Shown here: piece after piece, positions 28,133 through 30,601 of the stretch
Layout of the letters: every line of letters starts with the position of its first letter
Numbering within the stretch: position 1 is the first letter of the stretch
From: a virus
Lineage: Duplodnaviria > Heunggongvirae > Uroviricota > Caudoviricetes
Reading direction: 5' to 3' (one strand)
DNA: 51,013 bases
IMG/VR virus record: IMGVR_UViG_2548876959_000011
The notes under the pieces: model-generated
The model's input: only the letters and a program-made list of their open reading frames with translations
Told to the model about the DNA's origin: nothing
Database searches by the model: none
Made by a program: the position numbers and the translations under genes

Positions 28133-30393
28133 AAGAGCTGTGCTATGGATCTGTTTGCAGTGGAATTGAAGCGGCGAGTATTGCCTGGGAACCGTTGGGT
28201 ATGCGTCCGGTGTGGTTTGCTGAAATCGAGTCTTTTCCATCTGCCGTTCTTGCGCACCGCTGGCCCCATGTCGCCAACCTTGGCGACATGACAAAACTTG
28301 CCAAAAAAGTCCTGGCTGGGGAAATCGAATCCCCTGATGTGCTCGTCGGGGGTACGCCTTGTCAGGCATTCAGTATCGCGGGCTTACGTGGTGGGCTTGA
28401 TGATGAACGCGGCGCGCTAACTTTGAAGTATGTGGAGCTTGCAAATGCAATTGACGACAAACGGTCTGAGTCCTTCCTCAAACCGACAGTTATCGTCTGG
28501 GAAAATGTCCCAGGAGTCCTGTCATCGGCAGATAACGCCTTCGGATGTTTCCTTGCCGGATTGGCTGGAGAAGATGCGCCATTTGAACCAGGTGATCGAC
28601 CTGAATCAGGAAAAAGTAACGCGTTCTGGCGGTGGGATGGCAAAACCGGTTGCCATGCTCCAAAGTGGCCGCAGTGTGGTTGTATTTATGGACCGCAGCG
28701 AAAGGTGGCCTGGAGAATCCTTGATGCCCAATACTTCGGAGTGGCACAACGACGCCGACGCGTGTTTGTTGTCGCAAGTGCTCGAACAGACCTCGATCCC
28801 GCAACGGTACTTTTTGAGTTCAAAGGCGTGCGCCGGAATATTGCGCCGAGCCGAAAAAAGAAGGAAATCGCTTCCGCCATTATTGCAAATGGCGCTGCAA
28901 TCAGTGGCGAAAGCCTAAATCCATGCCTACACGCTGACATGCCACCCGGTATGAAATCGACGAAAGCCGTAAACGCTTTCAGGATGGCAGCATTTGGGGA
29001 ATATATTGACGATGAAACCGCATCGACAGTAAAGGCAAGAGATTTTAAAGATGCCACTGACCTTGCCGTTTTTAGCAGCACAGGAGCAGGTTTTTGGTCA
29101 GAAGGGCATGGTACATTGCGGGCACGTGAGCAAGAAAGCCATGAGCATCTTGTTACATTGGCTTTTCCTGAGCGTATGAGCGGTACACAACATGCTGCAA
29201 CTAAGAATACTTCACCATCTCTAATGGCTAAAAATCCAACAGCTGTTTGCTATGAAGTAAGAAACGCAGAAGTAGCTGTCCGCCGTCTTACCCCTGTCGA
29301 ATGTGAAAGGCTGCAAGGTTTTCCTGATGGGCATACGTTGATCCCGACGGAAAAGCGTAAAAAAGTTAATTCAGATGAACTGGCATATCTTCGCAATCAC
29401 TATCCAGATTTAAGCGAAGAAGAGGCCGCGATGCTTGCAGCTGACGGACCGCGTTACAAAGCGATCGGCAATAGTATGGCAATACCAGTAATGCGCTGGA
29501 TTGGCGATCGGATTACTAAGTCCGTATGTCGGCAGAAAGAAGGAAGTGAAACAAAAGAGCGAAAAGTTAAACCAGCGGCAGAATTCGAACGGTCCATATT
29601 CAAATGGGCTGGTGGAAAATTTGGTGTTCTGGAACAAATCTTTCGCTATTTGCCAGAAGGGAAGCGCCTGATTGAACCTTTCGTTGGTGGCGGAGCTGTC
29701 TTCATGAATGCCGGATACCAGGAAAATCTGCTAAATGATGTGAATGCTGACCTGATTAACTTTTACAAGACTCTGCAACGCGAGGCGCATTCACTTATCA
29801 CTCTGGCACATCGTTTCTTCCAGGACTACAACACACAGGAAGGATACCTGGCAGTACGGAATGCGTTTAACAAACAAGTCTATGATGATTTACATCGCGC
29901 AGCGGCGTTTTTGTTCCTGAACCGACATTGTTTTAACGGATTGACGCGTTACAACCAGGCCGGTGAGTTCAATGTCGGTTATGGGAAGTATAAAACTCCG
30001 TATTTCCCATTACAGGAGATGGAAGCCTTCCTCGGTGCGGAAGGGCGGTCTGAGTTTGTATGCGGTGATTTTGCAGCGGTGATTGAAGCTGCCGGAGAAG
30101 GAGATGTCATCTTTTGCGATCCGCCGTATGAACCGCTTCCAAATACAGAGGGATTCACGAACTATTCCGGTCATGACTTTAAGTTTGAAGAGCAAAAACG
30201 CCTGGTGTCTCTGTTGACGGATGCTCATCGTCGAGGTGCAAAGGTTCTCATTACTAACAGTGGCGCGCCAAACATCAGAGAGCTTTATCATGACAGTGGC
30301 TTCAGAGTGGAACCTCTTTTTGCCAGACGTTCTGTGTCTTGTAAGGGGGACACTCGAGGTGTAGCTCATGACGTTTTGGGTATATTGCTCTAA
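28129..30393 (+). CDS. dmt: Dmt bifunctional DNA methyltransferase (C5-cytosine MTase-like N-terminus fused to Dam-like N6-adenine MTase)
   Basis: 754-aa ORF; PCQ motif [12 protein letters not shown] and ENV motif WENVPG in N-half; DPPY motif FCDPPYEP in C-half. Confidence 0.9.
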
Positions 30394-30400
30394 TAAATTT
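30384..30400 (+). promoter_or_regulatory. C1 operator (perfect consensus) overlapping the dmt stop codon; Op72-like
   Basis: ATTGCTCTAATAAATTT 17/17; candidate promoter -35 TTGCTC / -10 TAATAT (30409-30414) overlaps it. Confidence 0.75.
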
Positions 30401-30574
30401 ATTAGTGTAATATCGCCTCAATGAATCGTGATTTATAGAGCGATTTAGCTGTTAGCCGCGACAGGCGCGGCGGTAAGCATGGCTGGGCCTAGTCCTCCCA
30501 GACAAACCACCGAGTTGCCAGGTTGACCATGCGCCTAAGTGGCAACTCCGAAGTGCGTTACGAGCTTCCAGTTT

Positions 30575-30601
30575 GCCCATCTTCGGGTGGGCGTTTTTTT
30601 T
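30575..30601 (+). terminator. rho-independent terminator
   Basis: Stem gcccatc/ggtgggc with UUCG tetraloop followed by T8. Confidence 0.7.

Follow-up and report, generated by a model that had tools for sequence, protein, structure and literature searches.

The ban leader of a P1-like phage

The DNA analysed here, called the window in the following, is the 51,013 nucleotide (nt) stretch of the IMG/VR virus record IMGVR_UViG_2548876959_000011, and the feature under study is the first part of the ban operon leader, which starts at the 3′ end of dmt. The region belongs to a P1-like phage, with 99.5-99.9% identity to RCS47, P1 (NC_005856) and JL22 and about 96% identity to P7. P1 is a workhorse phage whose ban operon has been under study since the 1980s. 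On the 3′ side of the leader lie tRNA-Asn, tRNA-Thr, tciA/B/C, tRNA-Met/Ile2 and ban (Table 1); ban sits 2.8 kb past the promoter P1ban, to which the P1 annotation assigns it. Over the feature itself the P1 record annotates the operator Obanab, the promoters P1ban and P2ban and a misc_feature named 'dicF-like region' (68791-68892 of that record, approximately 30508-30610 of the window), so far the only label given to the first 180 nt of the ban transcript. The operator, the promoter and this label are already known in P1. New is that the likeness is to a conserved, covarying and unnamed RNA domain, that DicF itself is absent, and that the modules found 3′ of the domain are interchangeable.

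A conserved and covarying RNA domain

A sensitive search with positions 30415-30610 found, in many lambdoid phages, a single place with 75-79% identity to 30456-30550. Matches to this stretch also occur in 4416 of 5426 complete E. coli genomes (about 80%), with a median of two places per genome; in a K-12-like chromosome ydfC and dicB flank the match. The domain was found in 63 phage records, with one place per record among the phage matches listed, and the model described below gives no second significant match in the window. The family was collected from viral contigs by a gapped pattern scan, which returned 66 members with 52 distinct cores. A first contig pattern (GCGGCGGTAAGNATGGC) had been dropped as too unspecific, as it returned mostly unrelated GC-rich genomes. 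On a plain MAFFT alignment RNAalifold gave a poor structure because MAFFT misaligned one of the hairpins (P2b), hence the structure was drawn by hand and used together with 14 equal-length sequences for a covariance model, R1. As judged by eye and by folding, the family architecture comprises an outer helix P0 (GUUGUGG...CCACAAC, or the G-U-paired GCUGCAAC), a hairpin H1, a two-part arm P2a/P2b and a helix P3 with a 19-nt loop. The Rfam models run on the window and on the Qin locus include no family for this domain.

R1 matches the window at 30450-30559 with 66.8 bits (E 2e-15) and P7 with 72.5 bits; P1-type sequences score 62-73 bits and the lambdoid members, every one of which is recovered, 102-158 bits. 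In the R1 alignment H1, P2a, P2b, P3 and the invariant loop are all kept in the P1-type sequences. The P3 loop, GGUUGACCAUGCGCCUAAG (30521-30539), is near-invariant and conserved in all 53 distinct members, and the P2b loop, CCUAGUCCU (30488-30496), is rich in pyrimidines and similar to an anti-Shine-Dalgarno sequence. Among 67 hits with 53 distinct sequences 96.8% of the cells are paired and nine of the 31 pairs change on both sides, numbers which are generous because the alignment was fitted by the model and the sequences are related. None of 500 shuffles equalled the covariation signal, and controls with slid partners were far lower. The P2b hairpin is maintained across at least seven unrelated stem sequences. 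P1 and P7 differ by compensatory changes in P2b, the rest of the domain being identical, and P3 of the window differs from that of Qin by two compensatory pairs.

Two further places deserve mention. On the minus strand of the window, at 31696-31802 and downstream of the annotated upl promoters, R1 gives a weak match (10.6 bits, E about 1) with a P0-like GGUUGUAGCAA...CGCUGCAACGC and UGUUGAGAACACUGG, which could reflect chance or a second copy that has degenerated. In Qin a partial upstream duplicate of H1/P2a, AACGCGAAAGCGCAUGGCGAGGUAGC, is present (locus L003, approximately 2400-2440 versus 2497-2530). The lambdoid members L136 and L195 lack the 5′ strand of P0, as P1 and P7 do, and look like deletions between both H1/P2a copies.

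The domain precedes DicF

The Qin copy of the domain (L003, 2488-2611) stops 10 nt short of the match of the Rfam DicF model (RF00039; 2622-2673, 76.7 bits). In P1-type sequence this model finds no match, neither at E <= 1 in 4.5 kb nor at E <= 10 in 341 nt. The P1 likeness therefore concerns the sequence preceding DicF and not DicF, and the annotation 'dicF-like region' is only half right. Two DicF species are known in E. coli K-12, a 53-nt species with a 5′ end made by RNase E and a 190-nt species, detected by Northern blot, with a 5′ end made by RNase III; both accumulate in stationary phase under the conditions used (Ragunathan et al., bioRxiv 10.1101/2023.04.14.536235), which confirmed Faubladier et al. 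1990. A length of 190 nt, measured backwards from the terminator of DicF, reaches to the start of P0, thus the conserved domain represents the 5′ two-thirds of long DicF.

A hairpin followed by a T run is found 3′ of the domain in 66 of 66 members, P1 included, at a distance of 12-40 nt. The 3′ parts fall into 11 sequence clusters and therefore represent an exchangeable module. Most clusters are DicF variants sharing UUUGGCGG...CCGCC, and the P1 cluster is the most divergent: here DicF is replaced by GAAGUGCGUUACGAGCUUCCAGUUU and a UUCG/T8 terminator. The distance from promoter to domain varies as well. In P1 the domain begins about 30 nt after a repressor-controlled start, in a Stx2c phage about 280 nt from a PL-like promoter, and in Qin about 800 nt from dicBp (bioRxiv 10.1101/2023.04.14.536235). 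A search of 633 kb of family loci for a sequence complementary in cis to the invariant loop of P3 found none.

Operator, promoter and terminator

The coordinates of the features are given in Table 1. Operator and promoter coincide exactly with Obana, Obanb and P1ban as annotated in P1 NC_005856, and the operator overlaps the stop codon of dmt (30391-30393). A generic sigma-70 scan misses P1ban because only eight of twelve positions match. Judged from the promoter spacing, transcription would start at A30420 or A30421. The 5′ leader hairpin is identical in P1 and P7 and hence uninformative for covariation.

Table 1. Features of the ban leader and its surroundings (window coordinates).
Feature	Position	Strand	Basis
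dmt open reading frame	28129-30393		
Divalent C1 operator Op72ab (Obanab, formerly Op72ab)	30384-30411	+	sequence; same as protein_bind features in P1 NC_005856 and P7
Op72a, ATTGCTCTAATAAATTT	30384-30400	+	read from sequence
Op72b, inverted	30395-30411	reverse	read from sequence
Promoter P1ban (-35 TTGCTC 30385-30390, 17-nt spacer, -10 TAATAT 30408-30413)	30385-30413	+	sequence and P1 annotation
5′ leader hairpin, P1-lineage-specific	30422-30447	+	minimum free energy fold
Helix H1 (GCCGCG / ACAGG / CGCGGC)	30455-30471	+	covariance-model alignment, pair counts
Long arm P2 (P2a and P2b)	30471-30512	+	covariance model; five pairs changed on both sides
P2a, CGGU with ACCG	30471-30474 with 30509-30512	+	covariance-model alignment
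P2b, CUGGG with CCCAG	30483-30487 with 30497-30501	+	covariance-model alignment
Helix P3, AGUUGCCA (30513-30520) with UGGCAACU (30540-30547)	30513-30547	+	covariance model
P1-specific 3′ module, in the slot of DicF in lambdoid prophages	30549-30574	+	fold, comparison
Intrinsic terminator, GC-rich stem of 7-8 bp, UUCG tetraloop, T8	30575-30601	+	sequence, folding
Transfer-messenger RNA (tmRNA)-like module	30603-30790		
tRNA-Asn	31067-31142		
tRNA-Thr	31145-31220		
tRNA-Met/Ile2	32848-32923		

The 3′ module might form a small hairpin (GAAG/CUUC, 30550-30553/30565-30568) and contains an anti-Shine-Dalgarno-like GCUUCC and then AGUUU; the T8 run (T6 in P1) that comes after AGUUU is a putative Hfq-type tail. 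The terminator, GCCCAUC-UUCG-GGUGGGC, has its stem at 30575-30581/30586-30592, its loop at 30582-30585 and its T8 run at 30594-30601, with a folding energy of -12.8 kcal/mol, and is the first one 3′ of the dmt operon. The length of its T run differs among close relatives: the window and RCS47 have T8, some contigs T7, and P1, P7 and D6 have T6; this variation could tune the efficiency of termination. Compared with shuffled sequence the fold of the whole leader reaches only a marginal z of -1.9, so thermodynamics alone makes no case for structure. Matches of the leader to Rfam models at a permissive threshold (RyhB with 15.8 bits, nuoG, Ysr49, anti-hemB) were at chance level and were discarded.

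An earlier reading of the same DNA, made from the sequence alone (the original prediction), had described here an operator with a -35/-10 pair, the hairpins gccgcg/cgcggc and gttgcca/tggcaac and a UUCG-looped terminator with a T8 run, with no open reading frame (ORF) downstream of the promoter. Every one of these features was found, shifted by 1-2 nt at most. The operator and the promoter are the known C1-controlled Op72ab/P1ban of the P1 annotation, the hairpins lie at 30455-30460/30466-30471 and 30514-30520/30540-30546, the terminator is a canonical intrinsic one, and the stretch has no coding potential, the sole sizeable ORF being on the minus strand (30452-30616, 54 aa) and split between frames in P1 and P7. 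Covariation, proposed as a check across P1-like genomes, was seen in the wider set described above. Overlooked had been the prior P1 annotation, the membership of three hairpins in a widespread domain and the role of the terminator after dmt.

RNA modules downstream of the terminator

The original prediction placed the stretch upstream of the tRNA genes, which is correct for the position, but the interval up to the tRNA genes is not plain spacer and consists of further conserved RNA modules. Directly after the terminator follows a tmRNA-like module, which is also present at L247 1501-1680, L248 1501-1662, L249 1501-1676 and L367 approximately 2600-2890. Unannotated DNA with about 72% identity to it occurs in 293 phage records; some belong to unrelated lytic phages, among them Ackermannviridae and G7C-like phages, in which the module is located in regions of tRNA genes. 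An invariant UAAAU, directly followed by GCAAACGA, precedes a frame of 10 codons ending in GCN-UAA, the stop codon of which lies in the loop of a small hairpin. The tag encoded by this frame is ANDDLMMVAA in P1 and, for example, ANDNEFKVAA, ANDDVVLMAA or ANDNAYLMVA elsewhere; the E. coli tmRNA tag is ANDENYALAA. More than 50 tag variants occur in viral contigs, and the pattern matches are mostly 37, 40 or 43 nt long, thus the tags differ by whole codons. After the tag frame comes an H-type pseudoknot, both stems of which covary (8 and 4 variants), and then a hairpin with a GUGUAUUA loop. The pseudoknot stems were tabulated by script, as MAFFT shifts their strands by one column between subgroups. 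The Rfam permuted-tmRNA model gives 26-33 bits on the module, which is below the threshold of 47, ARAGORN called no tmRNA, and no tRNA-like domain was found in the module. The tmRNA census of 2014 lists no such phages (PMC4131195), and the searchable literature holds no description that matches the module. In two contigs the module directly follows a consensus promoter; the terminator hairpin of P1 therefore does not belong to the module.

A motif CACAACAGGUAAG(G/A)G is repeated at 30785-30870, 31222-31310 and 31436-31500 as well as at many other loci. Each copy opens a long hairpin with a stem of approximately GGUAAGRGC/GCUCUUUCC, closed by CACAAC/GUUGUG and with a variable interior. The same hairpin cassettes flank the tmRNA-like module in arrays of lambdoid prophages, and their 3′ strands resemble boxA (UGCUCUUU). 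These cassettes may serve as punctuation for RNase III or RNase P, or may mark boundaries of recombination. At 31229-31310 there is a tRNA-like element with a perfect T-arm (GAGGGUUCGAAUCCCUAC) which ARAGORN does not call; in the corresponding region of P7 (L002 4370-4456) and D6 (L246 4107-4193) a tRNA-Ser(UGA) is called after tRNA-Thr. The element may be a decayed or unusual tRNA in the phage of the window. On the minus strand, at 31190-31960, the annotated genes plp and upl overlap plus-strand RNA modules, namely hairpin cassettes and a GUGAUGAAUGCGCAGGCUGAUGCGCG...GCCGGAGAUCAGCACCGGUCAUCAC module, together with the 3′ end of tRNA-Thr, and may be mis-annotations.

The Rfam family STnc100 partially matches the window just before tciA (31995-32114; 39 bits, threshold 47). 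STnc100 also matches the Qin segment between dicF and dicB (L003 2671-2880). The presence of a STnc100-like piece in both suggests that an ancestral dicF locus was split by insertion of the block of non-coding RNAs (ncRNAs) and tRNAs. The block that P1 shares with phage D6 begins exactly at the terminator hairpin, and the D6 DNA upstream of it is unrelated. That upstream DNA (L246 2690-2790) holds a different structured stretch ending in CCCCGCUGCAACG, a motif of the P0 3′ strand; R1 found no match in it.

A proposed C1-controlled analogue of long DicF

On balance we lean, with slight preference, towards reading the stretch as a small RNA (sRNA) gene repressed by C1/Bof, an analogue of long DicF that doubles as leader of the ban operon. 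Once Op72ab is free of C1, RNA polymerase would start near 30420 and synthesize an RNA of about 180 nt, most of which would end at the UUCG/T8 terminator. The body of this RNA (30450-30548) would be the conserved domain with H1, the two-part P2 and P3 with its invariant 19-nt loop, which probably serves as a scaffold in the stabilisation or processing of an exchangeable seed/terminator cassette with a Hfq-type U-tail, and the RNA might regulate in trans. It would be a direct primary transcript and would not need the processing of an upstream mRNA that produces long DicF in Qin. Transcripts of the dmt operon would end at the same terminator. If Pban is to drive the tRNAs and ban, the terminator has to be read through in part; by such attenuation a fraction of the Pban transcripts would pass into the tmRNA-like/tRNA array, tciABC and ban. 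After induction ban is induced less than other C1-controlled genes (PMC4713147), and in a hfq mutant ban and trnA are over-induced (bioRxiv 10.64898/2025.12.28.696737). Both observations are compatible with attenuation, as circumstantial evidence and not as proof.

Several points speak against this interpretation. Transcript data of P1 were not found, and the start, end and abundance of the RNA are predictions. P0, which is the RNase III site in Qin, is absent from P1 and P7 (its positions are deleted in the R1 alignment), and the covariation counts stem from a model-fitted alignment of closely related sequences. A role as scaffold alone leaves the near-invariance of the P3 loop and of the internal loops unexplained. 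In a target search with the 3′ module on both strands of the 51-kb window the best energy was -27.9 kcal/mol, and shuffles reach -31.4. Finally, phage D6 has the terminator and all downstream sequence without the domain, therefore the terminator may belong evolutionarily with the downstream block.

Alternative explanations

The near-invariant loops would suit a sequence-specific partner such as RNA polymerase. The domain could then be a cis-acting antiterminator RNA, analogous to put of HK022 or EAR of Bacillus, which modifies RNA polymerase to pass the terminator that follows and thereby gates the expression of dicB (Qin), of early-left genes (Stx2c-type phages) or of the tRNA array and ban (P1). 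We regard this as improbable. In its favour, the domain of every member lies 12-40 nt before a terminator that has to be read through for the downstream genes. In the Stx2c phage no N-like ORF lies ahead of the terminator, the early-left ORFs of Qin and mEp460 lack an N-like Pfam domain, and for P1 no N or Q factor is known, though ban, 2.8 kb away, is assigned to P1ban. A precedent for a checkpoint of this kind is HK620, where an array homologous to the downstream block lies in the late leader between PR′/qut and the holin gene and is expressed by Q antitermination. However, R1 finds no match at putL (L005 approximately 8240-8315, minus strand) or elsewhere in HK022, whether the filters are at default or switched off. 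Under put-type control each early operon has a site of its own, and the domain is single copy in each listed phage record; a processive antiterminator would need no tight linkage to an sRNA terminator, and transcripts beyond ydfABC-dicF were not detected in Qin (bioRxiv 10.1101/2023.04.14.536235). The original prediction offered the stretch as a candidate sRNA or attenuator. An sRNA of about 180 nt is reasonable by homology to the Northern-detected long DicF, whereas the case for the checkpoint is one of analogy; an antitermination checkpoint is not established, no antiterminator being known for this terminator and no homology of the domain to HK022 put RNA having been found. Nevertheless, a passive scaffold does not account for the near-invariance of the loops, several carriers of the domain have no N-like gene ahead of the terminator, and P1 has no known N or Q factor, so a put/EAR-like role is worth testing. 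In a broader form, that the domain is a new class of cis-acting RNA licensing read-through of terminators, by modification of RNA polymerase or otherwise, the idea is a long shot. If true, an RNA antiterminator coupled to sRNA production would control entire operons in P1 and in many N-less lambdoid prophages, and in P1 the tmRNA-like RNA, the tRNAs, tciABC and the Ban helicase would be gated.

The leader could also be debris of recombination, consisting of the dmt terminator and a functionless relic of a lambdoid dicF locus. The ban leader is indeed a mosaic: the STnc100-like sequence which follows dicF in Qin recurs 1.4 kb downstream in the window, P0 is lost in P1, D6 gets by without the domain, and the terminator is the first after dmt. 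Such a relic is nonetheless doubtful, since the P2b changes between P1 and P7 are compensatory, with the hairpin kept and the remainder invariant, and since all three inner helices persist together with the invariant loops (66.8-72.5 bits), which would not be expected in decaying DNA. As a true DicF orthologue, the RNA would block the translation of ftsZ and cell division. Such a role would agree with the annotated 'dicF-like region', with the annotation of the adjacent tciA/B/C as possible cell-division inhibitors and with the GCUUCC of the 3′ module, which is anti-Shine-Dalgarno-like as are some loops of DicF variants. This reading appears largely refuted by the sequence and is very improbable, because the Rfam DicF model, which recovers DicF in Qin, finds nothing in P1, and the likeness lies in the upstream domain and not in the 53-nt DicF. 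The duplex energy of the 3′ module with the ftsZ start region was matched or beaten by 272 of 300 shuffles, in a crude test that also failed to separate real DicF. Hardly credible, finally, is a small protein, encoded by the 54-aa minus-strand ORF (hypothetical in SJ46 and JL22) or by a 41-aa ORF on the plus strand. Some P1-like records do annotate hypothetical proteins where the match lies, but the minus-strand ORF falls into two frames in P1 and P7 through the T6/T8 difference, no Shine-Dalgarno sequence was found upstream of it, lengths within the domain family vary by 1-4 nt, including non-multiples of three, and the substitutions are compensatory for RNA pairing.

With the likeness being to the domain and not to DicF itself, DicF loci can be seen in a new frame, as a scaffold bearing exchangeable seed/terminator cassettes. 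Candidate roles of the scaffold are stability, processing by RNase III/E and antitermination, and P1 offers the cleanest setting for testing them, as a single known promoter and a single known repressor are involved and no mRNA lies upstream. The annotation is corrected insofar as the label 'dicF-like' implied control of ftsZ. Furthermore, the ban leader turns out to be made up of conserved RNA modules in series, which matters for the expression of the P1 tRNAs and of the helicase.

Comparison with known systems

Put-type antiterminators suppress downstream terminators by binding to the beta′ zinc-binding domain. Like HK022 put, the domain described here is a multi-helix RNA that is promoter-proximal in P1 and in Stx2c-type phages and lies before terminators in operons without an N-like protein. 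It differs from put by the missing covariance-model homology, by having three or four helices where put has two stems, and by its single copy per genome. In lambdoid phages the PR′-tR′ checkpoint gives a short terminated transcript as long as Q does not act, and the sRNA StxS derives from it. With both the ban leader shares the order of promoter, terminated RNA of about 190 nt, untranslated array (tmRNA-like RNA and tRNAs) and genes, and the array of HK620 between qut and the holin gene is homologous. P1, however, has neither Q nor qut, and its demonstrated control is operator repression.

With DicF (RF00039) the P1 module shares the slot directly after the domain and an architecture that ends in a terminator and is presumably of the Hfq type. 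It differs in that P1 has no match in sequence or to the covariance model, and in that no complementarity to ftsZ was detected, by a weak test. The comparison with long DicF of the Qin dicBF locus is the closest one. DicF itself and P0 are missing in P1; the P1 RNA would be a primary transcript beginning 30 nt before the domain, while the Qin species is an RNase III product of a polycistronic mRNA; the repressor is C1 (with Bof) in P1 and DicA in Qin; and the 3′ neighbours are an ncRNA/tRNA array and a helicase gene in P1 and dicB in Qin. Alike are the homologous 5′ domain with H1, P2a/b, P3 and the invariant loops, the short module and intrinsic terminator with a U-tail that follow it within tens of nt, the overall length of about 180-190 nt and, in both, the control by a phage repressor.

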